Assembly: GCA_002774875.1 (NCBI GenBank)
Contig: PCYM01000001.1
Location: 118,153 to 182,152 of the forward strand
Length of the DNA stretch: 64,000 nucleotides
Origin: Candidatus Uhrbacteria bacterium CG10_big_fil_rev_8_21_14_0_10_50_16
Lineage (GTDB): Bacteria; Patescibacteriota; Patescibacteriia; UBA9934; UBA11717
Reading direction: 5' to 3'
Each line of letters begins with the position of its first letter. Within the stretch, counting starts at the first letter, position 1. The notes under the pieces were generated by a model that was not told where the DNA came from, searched no databases, and saw only the letters and a program-made list of their open reading frames with translations. Of the stretch, positions 3,146 through 48,009 are shown piece by piece. A program made the position numbers and the translations under genes.

Positions 3146-3892
3146 ATGAAAAAATCAACGTTAAAAAGTTTCTATTTGTGGGGAGGATCATTTGCTGTGT
3201 TGGCGTTACTAGTTTGGGGACTTGTGACCGTGAGCGGAGGGTACAATAGCGGAACGTTTACGGCCGTTCCATTAGATTTGTCTTCTGCCGCGGCATTTGA
3301 GCACACCAAAGGCCCTGAGGATGCGGCGATAACAATCGTGGAGTATTCTGATTTCCAATGTCCGTATTGTAAACAAGCTGTACCAGTGGTGGAGCAAATT
3401 TTGGCAGAATATCCGGATTCGGTTCGACTTATCTATCGTCATTACCCATTGCGACAGGTGCATCAACAAACACAACTCGCAGCAGAGTCGGCAGAAGCGG
3501 CGGGACGACAAGATAAATTTTGGGAGATGCATGATGTCCTCTTTGCAAATCAAGAACAGTGGTCTGGAAACTTGGGTGCCCGCGGGATTTTTGAGTCGTA
3601 TGCAGAAGCGCTTGGGCTAGACGTAGATCTCTTTAAAACAGACCTGCAGGATCGTGCGTTGGCTGAGAAAATTCAAAACGATTACGCAAGTGGTAACGAT
3701 GCAGGTGTACAGGGAACCCCAACGTTCTTTATTAACGGTGTTCAATTAAAGGCTTCGAGCTATTCAGGATTTGTGGCAGCGATTAATGCGGAACTCGCTC
3801 GGCTCGAGGAGGTTGCTGCAGCGACTGTGGATGCGGGTGCAAGCGCTGAAGATCCAGATACCGTAGGCACGGAACCAGTGACCGCGGAATAA
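3146..3892 (+). CDS. DsbA-family thiol:disulfide oxidoreductase, membrane-anchored or secreted
   Basis: N-terminal TM/signal segment; thioredoxin CPYC active site; DsbA-like fold signature (GTPTFFINGV). Confidence 0.8.
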   Translation: MKKSTLKSFYLWGGSFAVLALLVWGLVTVSGGYNSGTFTAVPLDLSSAAAFEHTKGPEDAAITIVEYSDFQCPYCKQAVPVVEQILAEYPDSVRLIYRHYPLRQVHQQTQLAAESAEAAGRQDKFWEMHDVLFANQEQWSGNLGARGIFESYAEALGLDVDLFKTDLQDRALAEKIQNDYASGNDAGVQGTPTFFINGVQLKASSYSGFVAAINAELARLEEVAAATVDAGASAEDPDTVGTEPVTAE

Positions 3893-3893
3893 C

Positions 3894-4331
3894 ATGTCAT
3901 CAAAATTCACAACGTGGATTTCCCGAGGCCTCCTTGTGGTGGGGGCTCTTGGGTTCATGGACGCCACGTACCTCACGTTGAAGCATTACGCGGGGGAGGT
4001 GGTTGGCTGCACCATTACGCAGGGCTGTGAGATTGTGACAACGAGTGTATATTCGCAGTTTTATGGAATCCCAGTGGCGTTGTTCGGCGCACTCTACTAC
4101 TTGACAATCGTTGTATTGATGATTGCGTATTTTGATCGAAAGAACGAGGTATTGCTGCGCATTGGCGCTTGGCTGACGTTTACAGGACTCGTCGCATCCT
4201 TGTATTTTGTGGGTGTTCAGGCCTTTATTTTGCATGCGTGGTGCCAGTACTGTATCGGATCGGCGATCTCGTCGTCCGTATTGTTCTTGCTTGGCATAAC
4301 GTATCTTCTAAAACAAAAATCAACTTCTTAA
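3894..4331 (+). CDS. vitamin K epoxide reductase (VKOR) family membrane protein, a DsbB analogue
   Basis: Polytopic 145 aa; CxxC pair (GCTITQGC and WCQYC) typical of bacterial VKOR; adjacent to dsbA with 1-nt spacing. Confidence 0.8.
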   Translation: MSSKFTTWISRGLLVVGALGFMDATYLTLKHYAGEVVGCTITQGCEIVTTSVYSQFYGIPVALFGALYYLTIVVLMIAYFDRKNEVLLRIGAWLTFTGLVASLYFVGVQAFILHAWCQYCIGSAISSSVLFLLGITYLLKQKSTS

Positions 4332-4333
4332 TT

Positions 4334-4504
4334 ATGTTGTGGTATTGGATCCTGGGCGCATTGCTGGTCGTTATCCTTATGCTTGCCGTTGGTGCAGTGA
4401 TGGCCAAAAAAACGGAATCTGTTTTGGTTGGGGAAGTGTGGGCTGTTTTTTCTCTCATTGTGTTTGTGGGCGTGTATTTTTTGATTGGCGCCTTGTTGCG
4501 CTAG
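4334..4504 (+). CDS. small hydrophobic protein (56 aa, 2 predicted TM)
   Basis: ATG at 4334 directly after the VKOR stop; MLWYWILGALLVVILMLAVGAV..; same strand and operon. Confidence 0.4.
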   Translation: MLWYWILGALLVVILMLAVGAVMAKKTESVLVGEVWAVFSLIVFVGVYFLIGALLR

Positions 4505-4551
4505 CTGTCCACAGGGGGATTACAGATACATGGTCGAATTCGCTATACTAG

Positions 4552-5634
4552 ATGCATAAATCTTGTATTTTTTTTATGGCTTATAACATTCCAAGTGGGC
4601 CGATCGGGCAAATGAATTCCGGTGGCGGACCGATGCGTACAAAGAAACAACCAAACATTTTGCAGGCGATTGCAGGTGCATTTATTGGCGTATTGCTCGT
4701 GTTGGGATCACCTGTTGCCATGTGGATGGCGGGGTCACAACATCGCGCCAAGGATTTTCAAGTGGCACAGCAGGTTGATTTGGATACGGTCGCGTCGGGT
4801 TATGTGACGTTCCGTGGTGCTCCGGAGTTGGTCACGAAAACAGCAAAAACTTGTTTTGACAGTGACTGTATCTATGAGCATGAAAGCGTCGAACGACTCG
4901 AGACGAAGCAGAGTTTAGAGTGTTCCAAGGACATTAAACAAGATGAGATGACACGCATCCTCTACCAGGACGGATCGGAATATAACGACGAAACCGGAGA
5001 GACCGTTCCGTGTTACCAGGTGGAACGTGATAGTTGGGTCGTAAAGACGGAGCATGTGATTGCTAACGATGTAATGGTTGGTTCCTTTACTATTACGCCA
5101 AACGAACGTGCAGAATACTTGGAGACCGTAGAGACGATCGATGAAACAGAGTTTGATCTTAACGACAAAGCGATAGCTCGAAGCGTATACACCACATTCC
5201 GTACGCCGGATATGCTTCTTGTTGCGGGTGAGTCGAGTGATGGTCGCGTTGTCATGCCAGAGAAGCGGACGTATGTGTTCTCGCAATATGATCATCCATT
5301 AACTCTGCAGAAACTCCGAGATATTGATAAAGAAAGTCGCATGATCTTGTGGCTCGTTACGTTTGCCATGATCTTTATTGGATATAGTATGATTTTTGGG
5401 CCGATTCAGTCATTGGCGCGTATAGCGCTCCATATTCCAGGGTTGGCACCAGTGGGACGAGCGATTGCACAAGGATCGCGTGCAATGATCGGTGTCCTGT
5501 CGTTTATCCTTGCGGTGGTGACGTGGGCGATTGTGTGGTTCTTTGTGACGATCATTCAGGTTTGGTGGCTGGGATTGATCGTAGTGGTATTACTGGGACT
5601 TCTTGGATGGTGGCTCTCAAAGCGTAAGAAGTAA
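4552..5634 (+). CDS. hypothetical membrane protein: N-terminal TM, ~200-aa Cys-containing extracytoplasmic domain, C-terminal TM bundle
   Basis: 360 aa; hydrophobic segments at aa ~35-60 and ~285-355; Cys pairs CFDSDC, ECSKD, PCYQ; last gene of the dsbA-vkor operon. Confidence 0.5.
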   Translation: MHKSCIFFMAYNIPSGPIGQMNSGGGPMRTKKQPNILQAIAGAFIGVLLVLGSPVAMWMAGSQHRAKDFQVAQQVDLDTVASGYVTFRGAPELVTKTAKTCFDSDCIYEHESVERLETKQSLECSKDIKQDEMTRILYQDGSEYNDETGETVPCYQVERDSWVVKTEHVIANDVMVGSFTITPNERAEYLETVETIDETEFDLNDKAIARSVYTTFRTPDMLLVAGESSDGRVVMPEKRTYVFSQYDHPLTLQKLRDIDKESRMILWLVTFAMIFIGYSMIFGPIQSLARIALHIPGLAPVGRAIAQGSRAMIGVLSFILAVVTWAIVWFFVTIIQVWWLGLIVVVLLGLLGWWLSKRKK

Positions 5635-5642
5635 GAAACAAT

Positions 5643-5672
5643 AAAAAACAGCCCATTCGGGCTGTTTTTTAT
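5643..5672. terminator. bidirectional intrinsic terminator (acagcccattcgggctgt flanked by A-run and T-run)
   Basis: Perfect 7-bp stem with 4-nt loop between convergent genes. Confidence 0.6.
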
Positions 5673-6379
5673 TTAAAGAGCTGTGTATCGTCGCCGAGGA
5701 GTTTAAACAAGGTAGACTTTTCTTTATTGGAAAGCGGTCGTGCTTGACCTTGTTTAAGGTGACCAAGTTTGATGTTCATGACGCGCGTGCGTTTGAGAGA
5801 GGTAACCTCATTGCCGAGTGTCTCAACCATTTTGCGAATTTGACGATTACGACCCTCAGTAATAACGATTTTAAACGCGTTCTTATTCTGTCGCTCTACC
5901 GTTGCTGCTCGTGTTGGTCGTCCATCGATAGGTACACCTGCGGCAATCTTTTCAAGAAAATCTTTTGTTAGTGGTCGTCGTACGTGAACGAGATATTCTT
6001 TTTCGTGACCTCCGATTGGTTTAAGAATCTTGTTCACAATATCCCCATCGTTTGTAACGAGGAGCAGGCCGGATGAATCTTTATCAAGTCGTCCCACGGC
6101 AAACACGTGCTCATGAAGACCAAGTGCACGAGGAAGATTCTGTGCGACATCATCAGAATGTGTAACCTCTACTCCACGTGGTTTGTGATAGGCGAGATAG
6201 ATTTCATCTGTTTCTGGGTTGACGGGTGCGTTATTCGCAAAGACAATATCGTCCTCTCCAACGTCATCCCCCAAAACAGCGATGCGGTCGTTAATACGAA
6301 TAGAACCAGCCTCTATGAGTCGGTCGGCCTCGCGCCTGGAACAGACGCCGTGATTTGCTAAATACTTATTGATTCGCAT
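5669..6379 (-). CDS. rRNA pseudouridine synthase (RsuA/RluB/RluF family) with S4 RNA-binding domain
   Basis: MRINKYLANHGVCSRREADRLIEAG S4 domain; GRLDKDSSGLLL catalytic Asp motif. Confidence 0.8.
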   Translation of the reverse strand: MRINKYLANHGVCSRREADRLIEAGSIRINDRIAVLGDDVGEDDIVFANNAPVNPETDEIYLAYHKPRGVEVTHSDDVAQNLPRALGLHEHVFAVGRLDKDSSGLLLVTNDGDIVNKILKPIGGHEKEYLVHVRRPLTKDFLEKIAAGVPIDGRPTRAATVERQNKNAFKIVITEGRNRQIRKMVETLGNEVTSLKRTRVMNIKLGHLKQGQARPLSNKEKSTLFKLLGDDTQLFK

Positions 6380-6463
6380 AAGGGAAGACCCTACCTGATC
6401 GTGAATGATTTGTCAATGATAGCATGGTTCTCCTATATGCGGGGCGCGTGTTATACTGAGGCT

Positions 6464-7384
6464 ATGTCGTATCAAATTGGAATGGATATTGGTGGTAGTA
6501 AATACCATTTTCGGGCACAAACAGATCGTGGTCGTTTGGTTGATGTGGTCGTCCCTGCAAAAGGTCTTTTAACATCCTTGGAATCAAAAAAACTTGTAGC
6601 GGAAATGGATGCGGGCGTAAAACGACTCATGAGAACACTGAAAACGCGTGAAGTGCCCACGGGGGTCGCGATTGGATTGGCGGGGCTTGATTCATCGGAG
6701 ATGACACGAGTCGTATCTCGTGCGTTGATGCAGAAACGTTGGTGGAAAGATGTAGATCCAAACAAACGTCTATTAGTGAATGATGTGATTATCGGCCTGC
6801 GTGCGGGCACAGACCGTGCTGCCGCGATCGCAATCGTGTCGGGAACGGGGTCCAATGGATATGGAATTGATCCGCGAGGAGACGAAGCATGGGTGTCGGG
6901 CCGTGGGCCACTTATGGCCGATGAAGGAAGCGCGTACGAGATTGGGGTTGCCTGTTTGCGCGCGGTCAGAAAAGCAGAAGACGGGCGAGGTCCTGCAACG
7001 CACCTGCAGGCAATGGTTTTAAAAAAATTTCAGGTGTCATCTACGGCTCAGCTCGTTCCATTGATGCATCAATCAGCATTTGATCGGCAGCATGTTGCCG
7101 AGCTCGCGATTCTCGTAATGGAAGCGTCGTTGAAAGGAGATAAGGTTGCAGAAGCGATAATAGATGTAGCAGCAAACGAGTTGGCTCTGATGGCGAAAAC
7201 GCTTCACAAGCAATTACATTTTGGGGAAGACAAAGTTGATGTTGTGATGGTTGGTGGTTGTATTAATAAGAACGTAGAATTGCGGCGACTGTTTTTGCGC
7301 GCCATGAAAAAAGAATCATGGGCAAATCCGATTCCCTTGCTCGATGACCCTGTGTCGGGTGCGCTTCAACTCCTCCATTTCTAA
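6464..7384 (+). CDS. BadF/BadG/BcrA/BcrD-type ATPase, N-acetylglucosamine kinase-like
   Basis: GMDIGGSK phosphate-1 motif at the N-terminus; sugar-kinase/ASKHA-like pattern. Start placed at the ATG at 6464; the ORF is open from 6401. Confidence 0.55.
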   Translation: MSYQIGMDIGGSKYHFRAQTDRGRLVDVVVPAKGLLTSLESKKLVAEMDAGVKRLMRTLKTREVPTGVAIGLAGLDSSEMTRVVSRALMQKRWWKDVDPNKRLLVNDVIIGLRAGTDRAAAIAIVSGTGSNGYGIDPRGDEAWVSGRGPLMADEGSAYEIGVACLRAVRKAEDGRGPATHLQAMVLKKFQVSSTAQLVPLMHQSAFDRQHVAELAILVMEASLKGDKVAEAIIDVAANELALMAKTLHKQLHFGEDKVDVVMVGGCINKNVELRRLFLRAMKKESWANPIPLLDDPVSGALQLLHF

Positions 7385-7458
7385 GCCGAGCGATGTCTCG
7401 GTTTTGCGTTTATTAGAGAAATTGGATAAAGTCACCTTACTAACATCAGAAAACGCGT

Positions 7459-8973
7459 ATGAAAACTACGGTCTTACAAGGAGATATTACAACGTCCGAG
7501 GCAAATGTGTTGATCGTGGGACATTTGGAGGATGGTGGAAAGCGATTGGGGGGTGCATTGGAATCGATAGACACCGCGCTCGGCGGAGAAATTTCTGCAG
7601 CGATTACGGCAAAGGAGATAACCGGAAAACTTGCACAGATTTTGCTTGTTCGCACGCATGGTCGGATTCAACCGTCGCACGTGATCGTGGTTGGACTGGG
7701 AACAAAAAAAGAACTGACTGTGGAGCGTGTGCGCCAAGCCATGGGATCGGCTTGGTCTAGGGTCATGCAATTGAATGTCAGTTCTGTGGCGGCTGTGTTG
7801 ATGGGCGCAGGGAAGGGGGAGCAAGAGCCGCGTGCAATCGCACAGGCACTTACGGAGGCGGCACTGCTGACAAATTACAAATTTGATACGTGGAAAAAGA
7901 ACGATGACACTAAAAAGACGATCATTGCCAATTTGACGCTCGTTGAAATCCTGCCAGCTCATTGCAAGCTTGCAGTGCTTGGATGCGCGGACGGAGAGGT
8001 TTTTGCACAGGCGACGATTGTTGCGCGCGACCTTGTGAACGAGGCGCCTTCACACATGGTGCCAATGGAGCTTAAGCGAGCGGCGGAGGCGATCGCAAAA
8101 TCCTGTCCAGAGGTGTCCCTGAAGGTACTTGATCGCGCAGCAGCAAAGAAACGTGGCATGAATGCCTTCCTCGCCGTGGCTGCAGGGTCTACGACGGAAC
8201 CGTATTTCTTGCACCTCACGTATACACCAAACAAACCAACCAAAAAATCTATCGCGCTTGTCGGAAAGGGGATTACGTTTGATTCTGGTGGTTTGTCTCT
8301 CAAGCCTGCCGATGGCATGATGACCATGAAATGTGACATGGCGGGAGCGGCAACCGTACTGGGAATTTTTTCCGCATTAGGAAAGTTACAGCCAACGATG
8401 GTGGTTCACGGGTTGATTGCGGCGTGTGAAAATATGCCATCGGGCTCTGCGTATCGCCCGGGAGATGTCGTGACGGCCATGAACGGGACTACGATTGAAG
8501 TTTTAAATACGGATGCAGAAGGACGGGTCACCCTTGCCGATGCGCTCTCGTATGCCACGGAATTGCGCCCAAATGCGATCATTGATTTGGCAACACTCAC
8601 GGGTGCCTGTGTGGTGGCGTTAGGTGAGGAAATCGTTGGCGTCATGACGGACAATGAGAAGCTTGCAGAACGAGTGCTAGAAGCTTCGTATCAAGCGGGT
8701 GAGGAATTTTGGGAACTTCCCCTGTATCGAGGATACGAAGTACTGATTGAAAGTAAGGTTGCCGATGTTCAAAATATTGGGGTAAACCGATGGGGTGGAG
8801 CTTTGACGGCCGGTCTCTTCCTCAAGAAATTTGTGGACCCTGCCATTCCTTGGATGCACTTGGATATTGCCGGTCCGGCATTTGCTGAGCGTGAATACCT
8901 CTCGTATGTTCCCTATGGAGGGACGGGTGCTGGTGTTCGAACAGTATTGCAGATGCTCAAACAACGGTGGTAA
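7459..8973 (+). CDS. pepA: leucyl aminopeptidase (M17 family)
   Basis: NTDAEGRVTLADAL signature and M17 catalytic-domain pattern; 504 aa. Confidence 0.85.
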   Translation: MKTTVLQGDITTSEANVLIVGHLEDGGKRLGGALESIDTALGGEISAAITAKEITGKLAQILLVRTHGRIQPSHVIVVGLGTKKELTVERVRQAMGSAWSRVMQLNVSSVAAVLMGAGKGEQEPRAIAQALTEAALLTNYKFDTWKKNDDTKKTIIANLTLVEILPAHCKLAVLGCADGEVFAQATIVARDLVNEAPSHMVPMELKRAAEAIAKSCPEVSLKVLDRAAAKKRGMNAFLAVAAGSTTEPYFLHLTYTPNKPTKKSIALVGKGITFDSGGLSLKPADGMMTMKCDMAGAATVLGIFSALGKLQPTMVVHGLIAACENMPSGSAYRPGDVVTAMNGTTIEVLNTDAEGRVTLADALSYATELRPNAIIDLATLTGACVVALGEEIVGVMTDNEKLAERVLEASYQAGEEFWELPLYRGYEVLIESKVADVQNIGVNRWGGALTAGLFLKKFVDPAIPWMHLDIAGPAFAEREYLSYVPYGGTGAGVRTVLQMLKQRW

Positions 8974-15366: not shown

Positions 15367-15394
15367 GAAATACACATGTATTGGCAAATTTCTA

Positions 15395-15423
15395 TTGACC
15401 TATTCCGGTTCGCGTAGTACAAT
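15395..15423 (+). promoter_or_regulatory. candidate atp operon promoter TTGACC, 17 nt spacer, TACAAT
   Basis: Read directly at 15395-15400 and 15418-15423. Confidence 0.45.
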
Positions 15424-15443
15424 CCGCGCGTCTTTTTAGTCAC

Positions 15444-15731
15444 ATGTGGCCAAGTCGCTGTATGGAGAGCCCGGTAAAACGTGGAAATACGCCGCCAGAT
15501 TCAAAGAAACCTGACGCCTACTACGTTCGACTCGCTCTCCGTATAGCCGCAGACTTTGGTGTCTCGATTGCCGTTCCGGCGCTTGTCGCTACATATGTTG
15601 GACAAAAATTAGACACACGGTTTCAAAGCCATCCCTGGTTATTGATTGCGTGCCTCGTTGTCGCCTTTACCCTGACGGCCCATTGGCTGGTTAAAAAGGC
15701 AAAAATCTATCAGAACATGTACGAAGCGTAG
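15444..15731 (+). CDS. ATP synthase protein I-like (AtpI/AtpZ) small membrane protein
   Basis: Small 2-TM protein immediately upstream of atpB; position-based call. Confidence 0.45.
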   Translation: MWPSRCMESPVKRGNTPPDSKKPDAYYVRLALRIAADFGVSIAVPALVATYVGQKLDTRFQSHPWLLIACLVVAFTLTAHWLVKKAKIYQNMYEA

Positions 15732-15733
15732 AT

Positions 15734-16537
15734 ATGCTACCTCCACTTTCTGCAGAACCTATTTTCTATCTTGCAAGCATGCCAATCACCAATGCGATGA
15801 TTAACGCATTAATTGGTGTTGTTTTTTTTGTGATTTTGGCGCTTGTCTTGTCTCGGAAACGATCCATGGTTCCGCGGGGCATTCAAAATGTTTTTGAGTC
15901 AATACTGGAATTGGGATTGTCGTTTGCGGAACAGGTGACCGGAAATCGAAAGACGGCAGAACGATTCTTTCCGCTCGCGATGACCTTGTTCCTGTTTATC
16001 TTATTCTCGAACTGGATTGGTTTGTTGCCTGGAACAGGATCTATTGGGGTGTTTCAGTTGCACGCAGGGGAGGTTGAATTGATTCCTTTGTTGCGTCCCG
16101 CGAGTTCGGATCTCAATATGACGCTTGCTATGGCCGCGTTATCGATTCTCATGACACATGTTTTTGGTGTGATGGCGATTGGCGTTTGGAAGCATGCGAA
16201 TAAATTCATTAATCTTCGCGGAATTTTCCATGCGTTTAAAAAAGGACCCATGGCCATTCTTGTCTCATTGATCGAGTTTGGCGTCGGGTTGATTGAGTTG
16301 GTGGGAGAGGTGGCTAAGACGCTTAGTTTGTCCTTGCGATTGTTTGGAAACGTGTTTGCGGGAGAAGTTTTGCTCACGGTGCTCGCGGGGCTGTTGGCGT
16401 TTGGATTGCCAATTCCGTTTTTGTTCCTGGAATTGCTCGTGGGTGTCATTCAAGCAACCGTGTTTGCGGTGCTTGTATTGGCATTTGGAGCGGTGGCCAC
16501 GATGTCACCACATGGAGACTCCGAGGAGGCGCATTAA
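15734..16537 (+). CDS. atpB: F0F1 ATP synthase subunit a
   Basis: LSLRLFGNVFAGE motif with the essential Arg. Confidence 0.9.
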   Translation: MLPPLSAEPIFYLASMPITNAMINALIGVVFFVILALVLSRKRSMVPRGIQNVFESILELGLSFAEQVTGNRKTAERFFPLAMTLFLFILFSNWIGLLPGTGSIGVFQLHAGEVELIPLLRPASSDLNMTLAMAALSILMTHVFGVMAIGVWKHANKFINLRGIFHAFKKGPMAILVSLIEFGVGLIELVGEVAKTLSLSLRLFGNVFAGEVLLTVLAGLLAFGLPIPFLFLELLVGVIQATVFAVLVLAFGAVATMSPHGDSEEAH

Positions 16538-16834
<297 letters not shown>

Positions 16835-16918
16835 GTGACCTCAGAGCCCGCAAGGCGGGATTCTGGGCAGAGAAAGTGACCCGTGCGCTTGTTCTGCTCA
16901 GAAGAGATAAGACTACTT

Positions 16919-17566
16919 ATGGAACTACCTATTTTACACATTATTGCAGAGACGTTTATTCAGGTGGCGCATGCGTCAACGACTGTCGCGGAATCCGCGG
17001 AGGTGTTGGATGTGGTCAACCAAGGGTTTGTAGTGGCGACAGAGGTCCCTCATATTGCAGAAGGGGATTTATTAGGATCGTTTGGGATTGACCTCAAGTT
17101 GTTTCTTGCTCAGCTCGTGAACTTTTTGGTGGTGCTGGGTGTGTTATGGATGTTTGCGTACAAACCATTGCTTAAGCTCATGAAGGAGCGCACGCAGAAA
17201 ATTGAGGAAGGTGTTAAGCGTGCGGATGAGATGGATATGCGTATGAAGGCGCTTGAATTAGAACGAGATGAAGTATTGGAAAAGGCACGTTTAGAGGCAC
17301 GAGAAGTGGTAAACGAAGCTGAGAAGTTGGCTGTAGAAAAGGCAGAAGCACTCGTGCAACGATCAAAAACGGAGGTAGGTCGCTTACTTGAAACAAGTAA
17401 GAAGCAACTTGGCGCACAAAAAGTTCAGATGATGCGAGAGGCGCAGGAGGAAATGACAGCCCTTATCCTTACCGTCGCTCAGCATGTTACCGGTGGGGCG
17501 ATCGACGAAAAGGCTGCGGCAAAACAAACAGAGAAGGCACTGACAGATGCCATGAAGAATCTATGA
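16919..17566 (+). CDS. atpF: F0F1 ATP synthase subunit b, with N-terminal extension
   Basis: TM helix followed by a long charged coiled coil (KERTQKIEEGVKRADEM..); start uncertain (16883 or 16919). Confidence 0.7.
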   Translation: MELPILHIIAETFIQVAHASTTVAESAEVLDVVNQGFVVATEVPHIAEGDLLGSFGIDLKLFLAQLVNFLVVLGVLWMFAYKPLLKLMKERTQKIEEGVKRADEMDMRMKALELERDEVLEKARLEAREVVNEAEKLAVEKAEALVQRSKTEVGRLLETSKKQLGAQKVQMMREAQEEMTALILTVAQHVTGGAIDEKAAAKQTEKALTDAMKNL

Positions 17567-17946
17567 AAGTAACTGTCGAAGATTACGGTCGTCTGGTCAT
17601 GGAAACCTGTGGAGCATCTGCTGGAACGCAGCTCGACAAACGACTTCAGGAAGTATTACAACTCATGCGGCTGCGTGGGGACGAGCACCTCACTCATCGA
17701 TTGGCAGGTGCGGTCACGCGTGCGTGGGAGCAACAAAATGGTGGCACCGTGTCCATGCAGATGGCAACAGAAGACGAGAAGCTCGTGCAATCTATTGCAA
17801 AGAAACTCAAGCGTCCCGTGGAAGACATTCGCGTGCTCATTGATCCGACGTTAATCGCTGGCGCTCTGGTACGAGTGGGAAACACGGTGATTGATGGGAC
17901 CGTCGCAGGTCAGTTCGATAAGTTGAAGCAACATCTAGCAACATAA
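17563..17946 (+). CDS. atpH: F0F1 ATP synthase delta subunit (short, 127 aa)
   Basis: Operon position between b and alpha; C-terminal OSCP-like segment (IDPTLIAGALVRVGNTVIDGTV). Confidence 0.6.
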   Translation: MKVTVEDYGRLVMETCGASAGTQLDKRLQEVLQLMRLRGDEHLTHRLAGAVTRAWEQQNGGTVSMQMATEDEKLVQSIAKKLKRPVEDIRVLIDPTLIAGALVRVGNTVIDGTVAGQFDKLKQHLAT

Positions 17947-17949
17947 GGT

Positions 17950-19461
17950 ATGGCAACGTCAAAAACGGTTATTCTCGAGTCGCTCAAAAAACAGCTTGAA
18001 GGATTTTCTCCAAGTACAGAAGCCGTGTCCGTAGGAACGGTGATTGAAGTTGGAGATGGAATCGCACGTATCTCTGGTTTAGAGGAGGCACAGGCGTCCG
18101 AGATCGTGGAGTTCCCAGGTGGAACCTATGGGGTATTGTTGAACTTGGAAGAGGATTCCGTGGGTGCGATTATTTTAGGGGCGTATCGTCATATTAAAAA
18201 AGGTGACACCGTTAAGCGCACGGAGCGTATTTTGTCGGTTCCCGTGTCTGAGGAGATGATAGGGCGTGTGGTGGATCCACTGGGAGTTCCAAAAGATGGA
18301 AAGGGTGCCTTGCCACAGGATCACTTTGAGCCGATCGAGAAAGTTGCACCGGGTGTTATGACACGTCAGTCTGTGCATGAACCGCTGCAAACAGGTATCA
18401 AGGCTATTGACGCTATGATCCCAATTGGCCGTGGCCAGCGCGAGTTGATTATTGGTGACCGTCAAACAGGAAAGACGGCTATTGCTATTGATACAATTTT
18501 GAACCAGAAGGGACAGGGCGTTGTGTGTATTTATGTGGCAATCGGACAAAAAGAGTCAAAAATTGCAAAATTGGTAAAGCGATTGGAGGACGCGGGTGCC
18601 ATGGAATACACGATCGTTGTTTTGGCGGGAGCATCTGACCCATCGGCGCTTTGGTATATTGCGCCATACGCAGGTGCGTCGATAGGAGAGTTTTTCATGA
18701 ACAAAGGCCAAGACGTGCTCGTGGTTTACGACGATTTATCTAAGCAGGCCGTGGCGTATCGAGAAATTTCTTTATTGCTACGTCGACCACCAGGACGCGA
18801 GGCCTATCCTGGAGATGTGTTTTACCTACACTCTCGTCTATTGGAGCGAGCCGCAAAGTTGAATGATAAATACGGTGGAGGATCCATGACCGCCTTGCCA
18901 ATTATTGAAACACAGGGAGGCGATGTGAGTGCCTATGTGCCTACCAATGTGATTTCTATCACGGACGGACAGATTTATTTGGAGTCGGACCTTTTTTATA
19001 AGGGTCAACGTCCTGCGTTAAACGTGGGATTGTCCGTGTCGCGTGTGGGATCGGCAGCGCAAACGAAAGCAATGAAATCCGTCGCAAAACAGCTGCGTTT
19101 GGACTTGGCACAGTATCGCGAGTTGGAAGCGTTCTCGCAGTTTGCGTCTGATTTGGATGAGCAAACACGTGCATCTATTGAACGCGGAAAGCGAACAACA
19201 GAATTGTTGAAGCAAGGACAGTATGTGCCGTTGTCCGTTCCAAGTCAGGTGATGTCTATCTTGGCCGTAACAGAAGGTTACTTGGATGCTGTTCCTGTGG
19301 AGCGTATTCAAGAATGGGAGACCGCTTTCTTGGGGTATATGTCCACCATGCACGAAGACCTTGTTGCAGAAATTGCAACCACTCTTAAGTTGGAGGATGA
19401 CGTGAAGGAAAAACTTGTTGGCATTATTGAAACATTCACTCGTGACTTTGTAAGCGCGTAA
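17950..19461 (+). CDS. atpA: F0F1 ATP synthase alpha subunit
   Basis: Walker A GDRQTGKT; 503 aa. Confidence 0.95.
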
Positions 19462-19471
19462 AGGGCCATCT

Positions 19472-21768
<2,297 letters not shown>

Positions 21769-21771
21769 TCT

Positions 21772-22194
21772 ATGGCAGCCAAGATTCAATTCTCCATTGT
21801 GACACCAGAGAAAACCGTTCATCAGGCGGAGGTTGATTCGGTTCGTGTGACCACGACCCTTGGAGAAATTGAAATACTTTCGCAGCATATTCCACTCGTG
21901 GCAGAACTCAAACCGGGTTCTGTGGCGATAACGGATGATGGTGCAGAGCGTTTGATTGCGGTCTCAACGGGATTTGTGGAGGTCCGACCAGACAATTCCG
22001 TGATTGTGCTGGCAGATACGGCAGATCGCGCAGAAGATTTGGATTTGGCGGCGATCGAGAAAGCACAAGAGGCGGCAAAACAGGTTATGGAAGAGAAACA
22101 AAATGTAGATGAGGAGGCCTATGCGCACGCGGCGGCTTCCTTGGAACGCGAGCTGGCACGGGCGCGTGTTGTAAGAAAACAGACCCGTCACTAG
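21772..22194 (+). CDS. atpC: F0F1 ATP synthase epsilon subunit
   Basis: Operon position and epsilon-like N-terminal beta-sandwich sequence. Confidence 0.85.
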   Translation: MAAKIQFSIVTPEKTVHQAEVDSVRVTTTLGEIEILSQHIPLVAELKPGSVAITDDGAERLIAVSTGFVEVRPDNSVIVLADTADRAEDLDLAAIEKAQEAAKQVMEEKQNVDEEAYAHAAASLERELARARVVRKQTRH

Positions 22195-22208
22195 GATCAA
22201 AAAGCTAA

Positions 22209-22237
22209 TAAACACGGTTGATACGCCGTGTTTTTTA
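22209..22237 (+). terminator. atp operon intrinsic terminator (aacacgg..ccgtgtt plus T6)
   Basis: Hairpin plus TTTTTT directly after atpC. Confidence 0.6.
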
Positions 22238-22373
22238 GGTATAACCTTCTTTAGTCGACAAGGTGGACAGTGGGGTTCGTTGTGACTCGGTGAAGGTTGT
22301 TCGAGGGGAGTTAGACGAGCATTTCTGTACTATGGGGTATCCGAGGCATGAGTAGGATTCTGTAGGGTACCCG

Positions 22374-22822
22374 GTGGATGACATCGCGACGCGCAACCTG
22401 GCTCAGGATGTGCACGACAAGACGGTGATGGGTGAACGGATCATGGGGTGGATCCAGGCGTGCATCCAACTGCACAGTTGTCGCCAGATCGTGATCACGC
22501 TAAACGCTGGCGACCTGAGGAGTGAGTTCCGGGCCGCGGTGCTTTTGTGAATCGTGAAACAGTTTCCTCAGCAGCTAGGCATCACTTTTGTGAGTGTGAA
22601 CGTCGGAGAATACTCGGCGTTCGAGACACGGGACGAAGAAACGCAACAGCATAAAATGGATCTTTTGCGTGCAGCCGAGCAGGTCTCACAAACATATCCT
22701 GACATGGAGGTCAATTGATTCTTGTGCACATTGAAGATGATCAAACAATCTCCTTTGAAGACGTGGGGCGAGAGTCAATAAACACCCAGTTCTCCTCCAT
22801 TCAAGATTCGATCGAAGTGTAA
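22374..22822 (+). pseudogene. decayed gene remnant of unknown family: continuous reading frame with one in-frame TGA (22548-22550) and one +1 frameshift (~22712-22716)
   Basis: Three protein-like segments in register (..IVITLNAGDLRSEFRAAVLL* IVKQFPQQLGITFVSVNVGEYSAFETRDEE..YPDMEVN then LILVHIEDDQTISFEDVGRESIN..); no ATG start; lies in the G+C-rich island. Confidence 0.4.
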
Positions 22823-22867
22823 TTACAAAGCAGGCCGAGAGGTCTGTTTTTTATAAACTCGCCGTGA

Positions 22868-22896
22868 TTGACAAGCGTGAAAGAAAAAGGTATAGA
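22868..22896 (+). promoter_or_regulatory. sigma70-like promoter TTGACA, 17 nt spacer, TATAGA, upstream of the small-ORF pair
   Basis: TTGACA 22868-22873, TATAGA 22891-22896. Confidence 0.4.
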
Positions 22897-22943
22897 AGTG
22901 GCACCCAAGCGCAACAAATGCGTATTGGAACGGTGGAGTTGCG

Positions 22944-23189
22944 ATGACACTGGGAGACTTGTTGAGGGATTTGCAGGAGATCGTGCGCCGCGTGCTCAAG
23001 AACGCAAACGCGGTGGGATCAAGGTTCACCCGGTACGCAGAACTCAAGGAGGAGCTCCTGGCAGCTCTTCGTGCGGAGCTGCGGATCGGGTCTATCCAAG
23101 AGGCACATGCGTTGCCTGTCACGACCACGCTGAGCGATCAGGTGGCCAACTTGTTTCGTTCGCTGAGTCGTTACGCTGCGGCGCTCTAG
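22944..23189 (+). CDS. small orphan ORF A (81 aa, predicted all-helical), G+C-rich
   Basis: ATG preceded by GGTGGAG; MTLGDLLRDLQEIVRRVLKNANAVGSRF..; no family recognised. Confidence 0.4.
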   Translation: MTLGDLLRDLQEIVRRVLKNANAVGSRFTRYAELKEELLAALRAELRIGSIQEAHALPVTTTLSDQVANLFRSLSRYAAAL

Positions 23190-23230
23190 AAGCAGCTCGT
23201 CCCACCCCCACCAACCGCGAAGGAGCGGAC

Positions 23231-23545
23231 ATGACAAAAATGGTAAGAGAGGCGCTGCGGCGCGCAGAACGGATTCAGGGGATCGCCACCGACTCAAGGG
23301 CAGAGATCCCGATGGGGTGGGAAGACGCGCTCGCTGGGCTGGTGGATGACCTCATGGTTGCCATCTTCCGTCAGTGTGGCGTTCGTGATGCCGACGCGTT
23401 GACGGACGACCAGCTGGGAGAACCTCTTGACGAGGACTCGAGCCTCGCGTTCGACGCGCTCGTTACCCATGGGCAGAAGGTGACGCCGAGCAGGCTCTCA
23501 CTTCTCTCGGCTCCGATCCGACCTCCCCGAGGCTGGAGGCCATGA
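23231..23545 (+). CDS. small orphan ORF B (104 aa, acidic), G+C-rich
   Basis: ATG at 23231 preceded by AAGGAG; MTKMVREALRRAERIQGIATDSRAEIPMGWEDALAGLVDDL..; the upstream part of the long 22868 ORF runs through the promoter and is not credited. Confidence 0.4.
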   Translation: MTKMVREALRRAERIQGIATDSRAEIPMGWEDALAGLVDDLMVAIFRQCGVRDADALTDDQLGEPLDEDSSLAFDALVTHGQKVTPSRLSLLSAPIRPPRGWRP

Positions 23546-23647
23546 TCAACATTGAGGCGTGCTCGCCCGACAGGTTCTCTGTCGGCTGCGAGTGCGCTCA
23601 TCTTTTTAATTGACGAGGCCCAAAATCCTCTATACACTGCCATTACT

Positions 23648-25261
23648 ATGCGTATTGGAAAAGACATTTTAAAGGAGGAGGGACAATTCTGGGGGAAAGC
23701 GATTGCGGAGGAGATTGTGCGGCAGCGTCCAGATAAGGATGTGTATGTTGTGTCCTCGGGAATTAGCCCCTCAGGGCCTATTCATTTTGGAAACTTTCGG
23801 GAAATTGTGACGCAGTTTGTGGTCAAACGAGAACTGGAGAAACTGGGTAAGCGGGTGCGATTTGTGTTTGTGTGGGATGACTTTGATGCCATGCGCAAAG
23901 TGCCGGCGGGAGTTGGAGAGGAATTTGTAGAACATATCCGTAAACCGTTGTCGCGTATCCCGTCGCCCGCAGGTGAGGGAACATGGGCGCAGATCCATGA
24001 ACAGGCATTTGAAAGAACATTACAGGAGTTTGGCATTGAGACGGAATTTTTGTATCAAACAAAAACGTACGAGCAGGGAACCTACGATACATATATCAAA
24101 ACGGCTTTGCAGAAGCGTGAGGTGATTGCGCGTATCTTGTTGCGTCACATGTCGGATAAGGCAAAAGCCACCAAGGAGATTAATGAGGATGCGTTTGTGG
24201 CGTCCTATTATCCGGTTTCCATTTTCTCTACGTGGACCGACAAAGACACGACGGAGATCCTTGATTATGATGGAGAAAATCAACTCACGTATCGCTGTTT
24301 AGAAACGGGGAACGAGGAGACGATCGATCTTACAAAACAACATCAACTCAAATTTGCTTGGAAGACCGATTGGGCCATGCGATGGGCAGTGATGGGTGTG
24401 GATTTTGAATCAGCTGGTAAAGATCATAATTCGCCAGACGGATCCTTTGACGTGAGCTCGGACATTGTGCGTGAGGTGTTTGACGCAGAGGGCCCTATTG
24501 GACTTGCGTATGAGTTTATTGGCATTCAGGGATTGGGCGCAAAAATGAGTGGATCTAAGGGGAATTCGGTGACGCCTGGTCAACTCCTTGATATTTACGA
24601 GGTTCCGTTGTTGCTGTGGTTGTATTCACGTAAGCTGCCATCACAGCGATTTGATTTAGCCTTCAACTCAGAGATTTTGCGTCAGTACAGCGAGTTCGAC
24701 AGGGAAGTAGAGTTGTTGCGAACGGGCAAACTCTCCGATGTGCGGGTGGAGGCACTGCAGATTGCCGGTGCCGATAGCGCACCTTTAAATCCTATGCCAT
24801 TGCGACAAGCAATCGCGTTGGGACAGATTGTGCAATGGGATACAGAGAAAGTTGTACATATGCTTACGGCGCTGCAGATGGTTTTTGACCGTGCGAGTAT
24901 TGAGTCGCGACTTCTTAAGGCGTGTGCGTATTTGGAGACGTACAATAGGGAGGAGATGGTTGCGCTACGTGAGGGCATGAACGAGGAATACACATTGACC
25001 TTGTCAGATGATCGAAAGGCCGTCGTTGGCCGGTTGCGAACGTTTTTGGAGAGCGGGGAAAATCGAATCTCAGCGATTGAGAAAGAAATGTATGAGATTC
25101 CAAAGCAGGAGGGAATGGATGAGAAAGCCGTAAAACTTGCCCAGCGTGCATTTTTTACGGACGTCTACAACCTGCTTATTGGAAAAGATACCGGTCCGAG
25201 ACTTTCCACGTTCCTGTGGGCGGTTGATCGGCAAAAAGTGTTAGAACTGCTAAACGTGTAG
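23648..25261 (+). CDS. lysK: class I lysyl-tRNA synthetase (LysK type)
   Basis: PSGPIHFGNFRE (HIGH-class motif) and KMSGSKGN (KMSKS-class); architecture of archaeal-type class I LysRS; start at the ATG at 23648. Confidence 0.75.
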   Translation: MRIGKDILKEEGQFWGKAIAEEIVRQRPDKDVYVVSSGISPSGPIHFGNFREIVTQFVVKRELEKLGKRVRFVFVWDDFDAMRKVPAGVGEEFVEHIRKPLSRIPSPAGEGTWAQIHEQAFERTLQEFGIETEFLYQTKTYEQGTYDTYIKTALQKREVIARILLRHMSDKAKATKEINEDAFVASYYPVSIFSTWTDKDTTEILDYDGENQLTYRCLETGNEETIDLTKQHQLKFAWKTDWAMRWAVMGVDFESAGKDHNSPDGSFDVSSDIVREVFDAEGPIGLAYEFIGIQGLGAKMSGSKGNSVTPGQLLDIYEVPLLLWLYSRKLPSQRFDLAFNSEILRQYSEFDREVELLRTGKLSDVRVEALQIAGADSAPLNPMPLRQAIALGQIVQWDTEKVVHMLTALQMVFDRASIESRLLKACAYLETYNREEMVALREGMNEEYTLTLSDDRKAVVGRLRTFLESGENRISAIEKEMYEIPKQEGMDEKAVKLAQRAFFTDVYNLLIGKDTGPRLSTFLWAVDRQKVLELLNV

Positions 25262-25449: not shown

Positions 25450-26064
25450 ATGACACGCGCGGAAAAACAAACGGCCATGGAAGTTATCCACAGGGAGATT
25501 GAATGCCTCACGGCTTCTTTTTTGTGCGAGGAGCGAATTCGCACGCAGATGCTCCCCGTAATAGGGGAGGGGTCGCTTGACGCGAGGGTGATGTTTATCG
25601 GCGAGGCACCAGGGAAAAAAGAGGCGCTTACAGGCAAGCCGTTTTGCGGTGCATCGGGAAAGGTTTTAGATCAGTTGCTCACAGATACGGGTTTATCACG
25701 TGAGTCCGTGTATATTACAAATGTTGTAAAGGATCGACCGCCAAAAAATCGCGACCCTAAGCCCGAGGAGATTGAGCTCTATGGTCCGTTCCTTGATCGT
25801 CAAATTGCGCTCATACAACCAACGGTTATTGCAACACTTGGCCGGTTTTCTATGGAATATGTGATGCGTCGTTATGGTCTTGAGGAGCGGTTGGAGACAA
25901 TCTCTGGGCTTCACGGAAAGCAACATACTCTGAAAATGGAGTTTGGTACCGTCCACATGCGCCCGCTCTACCACCCAGCTGTAGCCGTGTATAATCGAAC
26001 CAGGTACAGTGAACTCTTGGCAGACATGCAGTCACTTGCCGATTTTGAACAACCAGCAACCTGA
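25450..26064 (+). CDS. uracil-DNA glycosylase, family 4-like
   Basis: GEAPGKKE motif; Cys residues in N-terminal region; ~200 aa. Confidence 0.7.
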   Translation: MTRAEKQTAMEVIHREIECLTASFLCEERIRTQMLPVIGEGSLDARVMFIGEAPGKKEALTGKPFCGASGKVLDQLLTDTGLSRESVYITNVVKDRPPKNRDPKPEEIELYGPFLDRQIALIQPTVIATLGRFSMEYVMRRYGLEERLETISGLHGKQHTLKMEFGTVHMRPLYHPAVAVYNRTRYSELLADMQSLADFEQPAT

Positions 26065-39795: not shown

Positions 39796-39819
39796 CTCAA
39801 ATCAACACAGGTCAATTTT
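39796..39819. repeat. direct repeat copy 1: ctcaaatcaacacaggtcaatttt (24 nt, exact)
   Basis: Identical 24-mer recurs at 40239-40262. Confidence 0.7.
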
Positions 39820-40238
39820 GATTTTCATAGATTTGTGAGAGGATGTTTTATCGTGTCACAATTGGCTATCTGTACAATGTGAACATGCATCAGCGCATGG
39901 AAACGCGTTAATCGGATACAATAATAACAATCTGTAGGACGTATTAAAAAGAAAGCAATCAATAGAAGCATTAACGTATATATAGATTGACTACCAAGGA
40001 ATACGTAGTCGAATCTCCCATGAGTCGTAAAAGGTATATTGCGCGACACATAGAACAAACTGCTTCGTCACGCAAGGAGGTGCTGCACCTCGCCTGTCTT
40101 CTATCCAGATTCCTTGTGTTTAAAGGGATCTTGTTCGAATGAGTGCTTTGATACCCTATCGAACCGTATATTCTCTCCCCCTGTGTTATCTGAAGCCCCG
40201 TGTCACTACAAAAGAAAAATTAACGTGCCTTACTACCC

Positions 40239-40262
40239 CTCAAATCAACACAGGTCAATTTT
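40239..40262. repeat. direct repeat copy 2: ctcaaatcaacacaggtcaatttt (24 nt, exact)
   Basis: Identical to 39796-39819, 443 bp away, in a gene-free spacer between convergent genes. Confidence 0.7.
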
Positions 40263-47913: not shown

Positions 47914-48009
47914 GCGCACCTCCTTCTGCCCTAACGTATGCGATTTCCTCCCACTTGTCAATAAACGTTCGTTCTTTCTTGCAAATTTGATATCTGGTAG
48001 AATAACGCC

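Follow-up and report, generated by a model that had tools for sequence, protein, structure and literature searches.

A G+C-rich two-gene cassette and a probable operon-replacement scar between the atp operon and lysK of a Candidatus Uhrbacteria bacterium

The window analyzed here is a stretch of 64,000 nucleotides from Candidatus Uhrbacteria bacterium CG10_big_fil_rev_8_21_14_0_10_50_16 (assembly GCA_002774875.1, contig PCYM01000001.1, positions 118,153-182,152, forward strand). The locus of interest lies between the F-type ATPase (atp) operon and the lysyl-tRNA synthetase gene lysK and contains the following features, in window coordinates:

21772-22194, forward strand: atpC, a listed open reading frame and the last gene of the F-type ATPase operon (15444-22194)
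22203-22241, forward strand: T1, intrinsic-terminator hairpin with a T-run, directly 3′ of atpC (-15.9 kcal/mol, z -4.2; inverted repeat I3)
22242-22822, forward strand: degenerate stretch specific to the window, GC 0.506, with two in-frame stops and then a frame shift
22827-22856, forward strand: T2, second terminator hairpin (-13.2 kcal/mol, z -3.5)
22868-22896, forward strand: P1, promoter-like site of the cassette, read from the sequence (TTGACA at 22868-22873, 17-nt spacer, TATAGA at 22891-22896)
22918-22947, forward strand: leader mini-ORF encoding MRIGTVELR, whose TGA overlaps the ORF1 start codon (ATGA); repeat family D4
22944-23189, forward strand: ORF1, 81 aa, hypothetical protein PIR47919.1, basic (pI 9.5), three helices predicted
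23231-23545, forward strand: ORF2, 104 aa, hypothetical protein PIR47920.1, acidic (pI 4.9), predicted helical
23553-23608, forward strand: T3, long G+C-rich terminator hairpin with a T-run that closes the cassette (-31.4 kcal/mol, z -5.1)
23610-23638, forward strand: P2, native lysK promoter (TTGACG, 17-nt spacer, TACACT), the sole site listed here by the promoter scan
23648-25261, forward strand: lysK, class I lysyl-tRNA synthetase (PF01921, E 7e-101), the right flank, outside the island

The initial annotation described this interval as a G+C-rich island of about 1.3 kb, which computation bears out for its right-hand part only. The mean GC of the window is 0.484, with a standard deviation of 0.027 among 600-bp windows, and the window-wide maximum (0.622, z about 5) is reached in the 600-bp window starting at 22976. 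High GC is confined to about 22931-23560 (0.60-0.63), comprising ORF1 (0.589), the spacer between the two ORFs (0.667) and ORF2 (0.627), while 22250-22860, at 0.506, is indistinguishable from the flanks. Because these left-hand ∼600 bp have ordinary GC, the island is about 0.65 kb rather than 1.3 kb long. The GC content at third codon positions (GC3) is 0.72 in ORF1 and 0.70 in ORF2, compared with 0.485 ± 0.052 across 52 genes of the window; the G+C-rich part is non-core DNA of foreign-looking codon composition and, as had been noted, does not resemble the housekeeping genes around it. The interval is two unrelated things, a cassette at 22868-23608 and a window-specific segment at 22195-22860. 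As a type, the cassette is unremarkable; its composition is mildly unusual.

The two small ORFs had been credited with good ribosome-binding sites, and these are present, with GGTGGAG lying 5 nt before the ATG at 22944 and AAGGAG 5 nt before the ATG at 23231. Both ORFs have a counterpart in the sister genome, UBA11717 (locus L001). ORF1 is 49% identical to its counterpart, with equal length, no indels, 33/23/46 differences at the first, second and third codon positions and a dN/dS of 0.37. ORF2 is 63-64% identical, again without indels, with 19/23/49 differences and a dN/dS of 0.18. The lack of indels, the bias of change toward third positions and the low dN/dS values identify ORF1 and ORF2 as real protein genes. 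The conserved parts include an AAA[LF] C-terminus in ORF1 and a Pro/Arg-rich C-terminal tail in ORF2 (..RPPRGWR.).

The signals around these genes are also shared. The -35 hexamer of P1 and GTATAGAAG, which spans its -10 box and is identical in the sister genome, are conserved despite a diverged spacer. A consensus-like promoter had been proposed here; the hexamers, the 17-nt spacing and the retained -10 stretch agree with this, but the -10 box ends in A, without the canonical final T, which is why P1 is missing from the list of the promoter scan. At the other end, T3 is the strongest of the three hairpins and recurs, with paired changes, 3′ of the ORF2 counterpart. DNA homology between the window and the sister genome sets in just upstream of P1 and breaks off exactly after the T-run of T3. 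Taken together, the promoter-like P1, ORF1, ORF2 and T3 give 22868-23608 the make-up of a self-contained unit.

Between P1 and ORF1, the first 13 nt of the leader mini-ORF (22918-22930) are the same as the first 13 nt of lysK, and the sequence occurs nowhere else in the window; the expected number of chance recurrences of the lysK start within ±1.5 kb is 4.5e-5. In the sister genome, there is an upstream ATG in frame with the ORF1 counterpart, and the repeat is not exact. This identity with the lysK start is left unaccounted for by the explanation that we favor below.

Profile and structure-prediction searches, which the initial annotation had suggested, were run on both proteins. There was no significant match in Pfam, PHROGs, PADLOC or NCBIfam (the best was JetA, E 0.007, 13 bits), nor in the PDB by sequence and profile searches, and AlphaFold2 without an alignment gave low-confidence models (pLDDT 58 for ORF1 and 52 for ORF2). 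The antisense and alternative frames, and the orphan genes of the relatives, gave nothing significant in Pfam. Both large protein-database searches used ORF2 alone as the query. Searched exhaustively with phmmer, 1.84 billion representative proteins yielded only ORF2's own cluster, as did a word-indexed search of 5.8 billion proteins, although the latter negative is weak because the 63%-identical sister protein, present in that collection, was missed. No match was obtained with the ORF2 alignment in JGI metagenome contigs, with ORF1 and ORF2 by tblastn in 50,697 phage records or in plasmid collections, with the ORF1 and ORF2 alignments and three of the relatives' orphans in IMG/VR pattern scans, or in an Rfam scan of 21500-24500 at E up to 1. 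ORF1 and ORF2 are thus without detectable relatives beyond one sister species. The suggestion that they might be toxin/antitoxin-like or phage-derived finds no counterpart in the phage, defence or toxin-antitoxin profiles.

We compared the window with the loci L001/L019 and L011-L016, all of which share the order TatD, atp, (lysK), UDG, TK, x, YgjP, UvrD. The right flank is well conserved: lysK is 80% identical to that of the sister genome, and the P2 hexamers and their spacing to the ATG are identical in 6/6 lysK-linked genomes. P2 lies 9 nt before the lysK ATG, which implies a nearly leaderless lysK mRNA. In outgroup Uhrbacteria, atpC is followed by UDG without lysK, and in more distant relatives lysK lies beside a class II aminoacyl-tRNA synthetase gene. 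The cassette is present only in the window and the sister genome and absent from the four other lysK-linked relatives (L011-L014) and two outgroups; in none of the relatives compared is the region conserved in synteny with a housekeeping function. L011, L012 and L014 carry in its place a gene for a Zn-ribbon membrane protein that is not G+C-rich, L013 has nothing in this position, and L015/L016 lack lysK. A search for remains of the Zn-ribbon gene in the window and the sister genome found no trace. The atpC-lysK gap varies from 418 to 2876 bp, with unrelated gene contents. As to the question raised earlier, whether the region breaks atpC-lysK synteny, gap content differs in every relative examined, and atpC-lysK synteny is itself clade-specific. 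Other genomes have different orphan genes in the lysK-UDG gap, which in the window is empty. Empty or near-empty gaps are not G+C-rich (0.53 for the L013 gap and 0.41 for the window's lysK-UDG gap).

The cassette is one example of unusually G+C-rich orphan genes in variable core-gene gaps of Uhrbacteria. In the class comparison, which covers eight Uhrbacteria loci, the non-backbone gap genes of the relatives have a GC of 0.60-0.67 and a GC3 of 0.61-0.91, compared with a backbone GC of 0.44-0.56; the one exception is a 90-aa ORF in L015 (GC 0.53, GC3 0.62). The compositional anomaly is also present in seven other genomes, in non-homologous genes at variable positions, and BLAST and shuffle tests detected no paralogy among orphan proteins from different gaps. 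The direction is opposite to that usual in bacteria, whose orphan and acquired genes are as a rule AT-richer than the core (PMC3514957), and plasmids likewise (bioRxiv 10.64898/2026.07.20.739530). Literature searches on G+C-rich orphan genes or islets in the Candidate Phyla Radiation turned up no relevant work.

Two further observations bear on how such genes come and go. In L012, copies of the same terminator hairpin flank an extra cassette on both sides, and the corresponding site in L014 carries one hairpin only, a chimeric one; this hairpin-bounded gain or loss is not seen at the window cassette, and the terminal hairpins differ from cassette to cassette. In addition, synonymous divergence (dS) is 1.2-1.3 for ORF1 and ORF2 and 2.4 or saturated for neighboring core genes, and 0.43 for the L012/L014 orphan compared with >4 for core genes. 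The lower dS of the orphans suggests later arrival or exchange, but could in part come from skewed base composition lowering the saturation level rather than from younger age.

The left-hand segment is a separate matter, and its inclusion in the island does not hold: it is the junction beside a swapped atp operon. The stretch 22242-22822 is absent from the sister genome, where the atpC terminator abuts P1. The frame at 22242-22718 had been read as a decayed gene, which is plausible given its two internal stops and coding-like composition (GC1/GC2/GC3 0.60/0.36/0.63), although its openness is equaled in 23% of shuffles and is not significant, and no homologue of the degenerate ORF pieces was found in Pfam, PHROGs, PADLOC or NCBIfam. 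A displaced atpC was rejected as its source, the clade AtpC protein HMM giving no match in six frames, and the genes found downstream of atpC in the outgroups did not match either. The terminator-like hairpin reported here, T2, is real, as is the atpC terminator T1. T2 differs from the L012 atpC terminator at 4/26 positions, and a DNA profile of clade atpC 3′ ends matches weakly at T2, in the stop-codon/terminator region (E 0.0018); this likeness is only suggestive because an unrelated terminator of the window is nearly as similar (5/26). T2 may be the relic terminator of a displaced atp operon.

That an operon was displaced is indicated by the flanking genes and the operon itself. The window AtpC is 58-60% identical to those of L015/L016 and 30% identical to that of the sister genome, and gene-by-gene identity to the sister drops across atpI-atpC only, both flanks being orthologous. 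AtpA and AtpD are 84-88% identical to L015/L016, and AtpD is 79-88% identical to many other Uhrbacteria. Judged by these identities, the window operon is of the “canonical Uhrbacteria” type, and its donor is known only as that type; the notion that it is simply foreign was dropped because it is the common Uhrbacteria type. The left breakpoint is bracketed to the 77-bp TatD-atpI gap (15367-15443). The direction of the swap, into the window lineage, rests on a tree in which the window and L001 are sisters with 100% bootstrap. On this basis, the whole nine-gene atp operon would have been replaced in the window lineage, and 22195-22860 would be the scar at the right-hand breakpoint, made up of T1 of the incoming operon, some 590 bp of trailing DNA undergoing decay, and T2, possibly the old terminator.

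The explanation we favor, and consider reasonably probable, is that 22868-23608 is an accessory unit from the G+C-rich orphan class that recombined into a hotspot, beside the replacement scar of the atp operon at 22195-22860. P1, a short leader, ORF1 and ORF2 with their own Shine-Dalgarno sites, and the strong T3 would form one transcription unit, which T1 and T2 would shield from the atp operon; having its own conserved promoter, P2, lysK would be insulated from the cassette. Both predicted products are small, soluble and for the most part helical, ORF1 being basic and ORF2 acidic. They may act as a pair in a non-enzymatic binding or regulatory accessory function; operon structure and opposite charge are the two features that suggest pairing, both models being of low confidence. 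The cassette would be one member of the orphan class that fills the variable gaps at the atpC / lysK / UDG junction. Most likely it arrived or was exchanged by recombination, in the ancestor shared by the window genome and UBA11717 or close to it; purifying selection would have kept it since. The initial annotation's reading as a horizontally acquired cassette or mobile-element remnant agrees with this in part: the DNA is non-core, restricted to the sister pair, located in a variable gap and foreign-looking in its codons, but no transposase, integrase or terminal inverted repeat was identified. For the window cassette itself, neither a donor nor a mobility gene nor a recombination site came to light.

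A more far-reaching proposal, which we regard as unlikely, is that Uhrbacteria hold a pool of G+C-rich cassettes swapped at a few hotspots via terminal hairpins, integron-like and without a recognizable integrase, from an essentially unsampled phage, plasmid or host gene pool, ORF1-ORF2 being one such cassette.

A toxin-antitoxin-like or other addiction or defence module, with ORF1 as a labile basic DNA-binding partner and ORF2 as the effector, or the reverse, would account for two small adjacent genes with a common promoter and terminator in a variable hotspot and for their opposite charges (pI 9.5 and 4.9). The AAA[LF] end of ORF1 is a further lead, and only a lead, since it resembles what we take to be C-terminal degradation signals. 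Such a module is nevertheless improbable: none of the four profile collections gave a significant match, the genes lie 41 nt apart with separate ribosome-binding sites rather than overlapping as is usual, P1 has no evident operator palindrome, and a known toxin fold is seen in neither of the two models, which are poor. Both genes are, in addition, syntenic and under purifying selection in two species. Purifying selection would also fit ancestral, vertically inherited genes, G+C-rich by selection and lost in the other relatives, with no horizontal acquisition. Position, promoter and terminator are the same in both sister species, and GC3 is high in both lineages at a dS of >1, where simple amelioration would have eroded it. 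This history is also hard to credit, as it must accommodate the absence of the genes from 4/4 other lysK-linked relatives and 2/2 outgroups, a dS below that of the flanking core genes, and the same composition in unrelated genes at variable positions in all eight genomes.

Less likely again is de novo birth in G+C-rich non-coding DNA that accumulated at the hotspot. Stop codons are scarce in such DNA, which leaves long open frames, and these occur across the region in several frames on both strands; the proteins are small, helical and, as predicted, partly disordered, and ORF2 has no homologue among the 1.84 billion representative proteins. De novo birth leaves the source of the G+C-rich DNA unexplained, however; empty or near-empty gaps are not G+C-rich, and the promoter, ribosome-binding sites and terminator are already complete in both species. 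The 13-nt repeat raises the case, which we think very unlikely, of a mobile-element remnant inserted at the 5′ end of lysK with a 13-bp target duplication (22918-22930 and 23648-23660). The direct repeat is exact, its copies lie 730 bp apart and bracket ORF1, ORF2 and T3, and one copy starts exactly at the lysK start codon, a coincidence not expected by chance. However, P2 lies inside the bracketed segment, and its conservation in relatives without the cassette marks it as ancestral; the repeat is reduced to ATGGC in the sister genome, homology with that genome begins upstream of the first copy, before P1, and there are no terminal inverted repeats or transposase. Finally, a structured non-coding RNA, G+C-rich through its structure and with incidental ORFs, would suit a G+C-rich island with a strong conserved hairpin (23553-23600) in a moderate-GC genome, but that hairpin is followed by a T-run and so is a terminator, Rfam has no match, and the equal-length, indel-free ORFs with their third-position substitutions effectively refute it.

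On their own, ORF1 and ORF2 are two more hypothetical proteins, already deposited as such, and it is their context that matters if the pattern holds. The bacteria concerned are ultra-small and probably host-dependent. In eight of their genomes, the hotspot genes that differ between relatives are consistently far G+C-richer than the core, and at least one such orphan has been gained or lost between two hairpin copies. Should the pattern hold, it would point either to an unsampled G+C-rich gene source or to an unusual way of creating and keeping new genes. As a side finding, the atp swap offers a clear-cut case of a whole operon exchanged in place within a reduced genome, between sister species.

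Among known systems, a prophage remnant would be expected to resemble phage proteins or genomes, and PHROGs, the phage records and the IMG/VR scans were all without a match. An insertion sequence or MITE would share the 13-bp direct repeat, but here terminal inverted repeats are lacking and the repeat brackets P2. Type II toxin-antitoxin operons are similar in having two small genes of opposite charge in a variable region, with co-transcription inferred here from the sequence, and the cassette differs from them in matching no toxin or antitoxin family, in gene spacing and in its syntenic conservation under purifying selection in two species. Integron cassettes, or clusters of attC sites without an integrase, are comparable too: the ORFs are small and mostly orphan, each is followed by an imperfect palindrome, and the L012/L014 cassette is present or absent between copies of one hairpin, with a chimeric hairpin at the empty site. 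The hairpins here, however, are terminators with T-runs that vary between cassettes, and the cassettes have their own promoters; no attC cores (RYYYAAC / GTTRRRY) were seen at the hairpins by inspection alone, and no integrase was identified, without a systematic tyrosine-recombinase scan.

The cassette shares most with genomic islets, or hotspots, an example of the concept being, reportedly, a 2017 survey of how horizontal gene transfer is organized along bacterial chromosomes. Most such hotspots between core genes lack mobility genes and probably turn over through recombination. As in these, the core flanks are syntenic and orthologous, the gap content is different in every relative, and the contents are of atypical composition (GC 0.60-0.63 compared with 0.484). 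The contents differ from those of other islets in being G+C-richer than the core by 10-15 points, with GC3 up to 0.9, and in that each unit has its own near-consensus promoter and G+C-rich terminator. The atp operon, for its part, resembles in-situ xenologous operon displacement, a concept of comparative genomics, in that the complete atpI-atpC set appears to have been replaced in place by a distant homologue between orthologous flanks.

In Candidatus Uhrbacteria bacterium CG10_big_fil_rev_8_21_14_0_10, from the Candidate Phyla Radiation, the G+C-rich island between the ATP synthase operon and lysK is an operon of two orphan genes that is restricted to its lineage and lies in a hotspot.

Features of the atpC-lysK region (window positions)
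15444-22194: nine-gene F-type ATPase operon, atpI to atpC
21772-22194: atpC, preceded by atpD, left side of the gap
22203-22241: T1, hairpin and T-run
22827-22856: T2, hairpin and T-run
22868-22896: P1, promoter-like site (TTGACA, 17 nt, TATAGA)
22944-23189: ORF1, GGAG-type ribosome-binding site 5 nt before the start
23231-23545: ORF2, GGAG-type ribosome-binding site 5 nt before the start
23553-23608: T3, hairpin and T-run (-31.4 kcal/mol, z -5.1)
23610-23638: P2, lysK promoter, found by promoter scan (TTGACG, 17 nt, TACACT)
23648-25261: lysK, class I lysyl-tRNA synthetase (Pfam PF01921, E 7e-101)
25450-26064: UDG, uracil-DNA glycosylase family gene, 3' of lysK

The initial annotation described a G+C-rich island of ~1.3 kb starting at 22250. 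Against a window mean of 0.484 (sd 0.027, 600-bp windows), G+C peaks at 0.622 in the interval starting at 22976 (z about 5), which is the maximum over the whole window. The enrichment is real for 22931-23560 (ORF1 0.589, ORF1-ORF2 spacer 0.667, ORF2 0.627), but 22250-22860 has a G+C content of 0.506, like the flanks, so the island is half the size first given. G+C is raised at all three codon positions of both ORFs and most at the third, with GC3 of 0.72 for ORF1 and 0.70 for ORF2 compared to 0.485 +/- 0.052 for 52 window genes. Elsewhere in the window, a 171-aa ORF on the minus strand (47503-48018) has the second highest GC3 (0.66) and no match in Pfam, and may be another cassette of this kind. 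A 24-bp exact direct repeat, CTCAAATCAACACAGGTCAATTTT, occurs at 39796-39819 and 40239-40262, at a convergent-gene junction; the ~420 bp of AT-rich DNA in between includes a 77-aa minus-strand ORF (39825-40058, GC 0.37), and the DNA at 39796-40262 may be a small insertion.

The closest relative found via LysK (80% identical) is the Uhrbacteria genome UBA11717 (L001), whose atpC-lysK interval carries the same P1, an 81-aa ORF1' (49% identical), a 104-aa ORF2' (63-64% identical) and a counterpart of T3 with paired changes, as well as an additional G+C-rich gene of 105 aa, ORF3', which the window lacks. DNA homology between the two extends from about 22852, just before P1, to 23606, exactly past the T3 T-run, and thus defines P1, ORF1, ORF2 and T3 as the conserved unit. 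The signals named in the initial annotation are borne out: T1 and T2 each fold far better than shuffled sequence, the P1 core is matched in L001, and both ORFs have good ribosome-binding sites. T3, an additional hairpin, likewise folds far better than shuffled sequence. Our promoter scan listed only P2, since it accepts a -10 box only if the last base is T, and that of P1 is A. Both protein alignments are free of indels, differences at codon positions 1/2/3 number 33/23/46 for ORF1 and 19/23/49 for ORF2, and dN/dS is 0.37 and 0.18, respectively. ORF1 and ORF2 are therefore protein-coding genes under purifying selection, neither incidental ORFs nor RNA; an Rfam search returned nothing. Six more ORF2-carrying contigs are identical to the window in this region and add no variation.

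Both proteins, deposited in GenBank as hypothetical (PIR47919.1 and PIR47920.1; HBU27549-51 in the sister genome), are orphans. Neither matches Pfam, PHROGs, PADLOC or NCBIfam, the PDB by sequence or profile, or phage records, plasmid records and viral contigs. An exhaustive phmmer search with ORF2 of 1.84 billion representative proteins returned its own cluster alone, JGI metagenome contigs gave no ORF2 match, and the other and antisense frames of the region matched nothing in Pfam. A word-indexed protein search missed the 63%-identical ORF2 homologue of L001, although it is in that collection, so negatives from that tool are weaker than they look. Single-sequence AlphaFold2 models, of low confidence (pLDDT 58 for ORF1 and 52 for ORF2), suggest that each protein forms three helices, with a disordered tail added in ORF2. 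We found no evidence for the mobile-element, phage-derived or toxin/antitoxin-like origins first considered, with the phage and defense profile collections all silent. ORF1 is basic (pI 9.5) and ORF2 acidic (pI 4.9). Our best guess for their role is that the two small proteins interact and serve an accessory function.

Four further relatives (L011-L014), reached via LysK homologues at 72-74% identity, share the backbone of the window (atpA-G-D-C, lysK, UDG, TK, x, YgjP, UvrD). Their atpC-lysK gaps differ: that of L013 is 418 bp long and holds no gene, L012 and L014 have as sole gene a 140-aa Zn-ribbon membrane protein that is not GC-rich, and L011 has this gene along with a 2.2-kb G+C-rich orphan-gene block. 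The small, conserved Zn-ribbon protein has two CxxC pairs, two hydrophobic segments and no Pfam match, and the stop codon of its gene shares bases with the -35 hexamer at which the lysK promoter starts.

Features in relatives (positions within each locus)
Zn-ribbon membrane protein gene, directly upstream of lysK: L011 4544-4957; L012 4544-4966; L014 4507-4929
lysK promoter sites: window 23610-23660; L001 5953-5994; L011-L014 about 4960-5003
G+C-rich orphans: L011 2228-4386, 6695-6982; L012 6700-7672; L013 6685-7110; L014 6664-7071; L015 9696-10538; L016 6855-7976, 10229-11005; L001 5596-5913, 7734-8111
Extra G+C-rich cassette: L012, ORF 7232-7672, hairpin copies 7120-7154 and 7690-7724 on either side

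In outgroup Uhrbacteria, atpC is followed by a variable gap and UDG, without lysK (L015 6847-7233; L016 6807-8026), and in genomes with 64-65% LysK identity, lysK follows a class II aminoacyl-tRNA synthetase gene (L017 and L018, about 3700-6620). ORF1 and ORF2 are absent from all of L011-L014 (0/4). The atpC-lysK adjacency, the yardstick proposed at the outset, is therefore itself clade-specific. The atpC-UDG junction is thus an insertion hotspot, into which lysK itself moved.

P2 is the native lysK promoter. Its hexamers (TTGAC[GTC], 17-nt spacer, TA[CG]ACT) lie 9 nt before the lysK ATG in all six lysK-linked genomes, none of which has a lysK ribosome-binding site, and this spacing implies that the lysK mRNA is probably nearly leaderless. 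The first 17 nt of lysK are the same in the window and L012. The first 13 nt, ATGCGTATTGGAA (23648-23660), recur exactly at 22918-22930, 3' of P1 (chance expectation 4.5e-5), where they start a mini-ORF of nine codons that ends in a TGA overlapping the ATG of ORF1. In L001 the repeat is degenerate, and the ATG upstream shares the reading frame of ORF1'. This degeneracy, and the position of the ancestral P2 inside the bracketed segment, show that it is no simple target duplication, and the repeat fits none of the models tried.

The left half of the interval has a separate history. Window and L001 are 69-74% identical in CvpA and TatD and 64-97% from ORF2 onward, while across the ATPase operon (1924-8654 in L019, the longer version of the L001 locus) identity is 30-67% (AtpB 36%, AtpA 55%, AtpG 30%, AtpD 67%, AtpC 30%), with AtpI and AtpH undetectable. 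The window operon instead matches L015 and L016 (84-88% for AtpA and AtpD) and many other Uhrbacteria (AtpD 79-88%). In a neighbour-joining tree of UDG, x and YgjP, the window pairs with L001 as its sister at 100% bootstrap, and the pair falls among L011-L014. We infer an in-place operon replacement, most parsimoniously a swap in the window lineage of the clade's divergent operon for a canonical one. The right breakpoint is between atpC and P1, where 630 bp, including T1 and a degenerate ORF, are absent in L001. This ORF, initially annotated as a decayed gene, resembles coding sequence in its base composition by codon position, but the openness of its frame is statistically ordinary and the searches found no homologue. 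T2 agrees with the L012 atpC terminator at all but 4 of 26 positions, with a DNA-profile E of 0.0018, and an unrelated window terminator is nearly as close; the resemblance is only suggestive.

In the lysK-UDG gap, L012 carries an additional cassette relative to L014 (promoter, ribosome-binding site, 146-aa ORF, hairpin), bounded by two copies of one ~38-nt terminator hairpin. L014 has a single chimeric hairpin (7080-7114), its left arm that of copy A and its right arm that of copy B, the mark that gaining or losing a cassette through recombination at the hairpin leaves behind. The neighboring orphan gene that both genomes share (L012 6700-7110, L014 6664-7071) has a dS of 0.43, compared to 2.4 for the membrane protein gene and saturation (above 4) for the adjacent UDG, a contrast that points to transfer at a later time or to strong constraint on synonymous sites. 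Between window and L001, dS is 1.2-1.3 for ORF1 and ORF2, 2.4 for LysK and saturated for UDG. These values are consistent with orphan cassettes having arrived or been exchanged later than the species split, although skewed base composition lowers the level at which dS saturates and weakens this inference.

Across eight genomes, gap genes outside the backbone have GC of 0.60-0.67 and GC3 of 0.61-0.91, compared to backbone GC of 0.44-0.56, with a 90-aa ORF of L015 (GC 0.53) as the sole exception; the pattern recurs after YgjP in L015 and L016. For the orphans tabulated above from the seven relatives, GC spans 0.56-0.67 and GC3 reaches 0.91. Compared with one another, these G+C-rich orphans show no detectable relatedness, and every one has its own G+C-rich terminator hairpin at its 3' side. 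In bacteria, orphan genes usually fall below the genome at large in both length and G+C content (PMC3514957), so a bias toward G+C, as in these Uhrbacteria gaps, is unusual. The object is of a known kind; mildly unusual are the direction in which its composition deviates and its cassette-like build.
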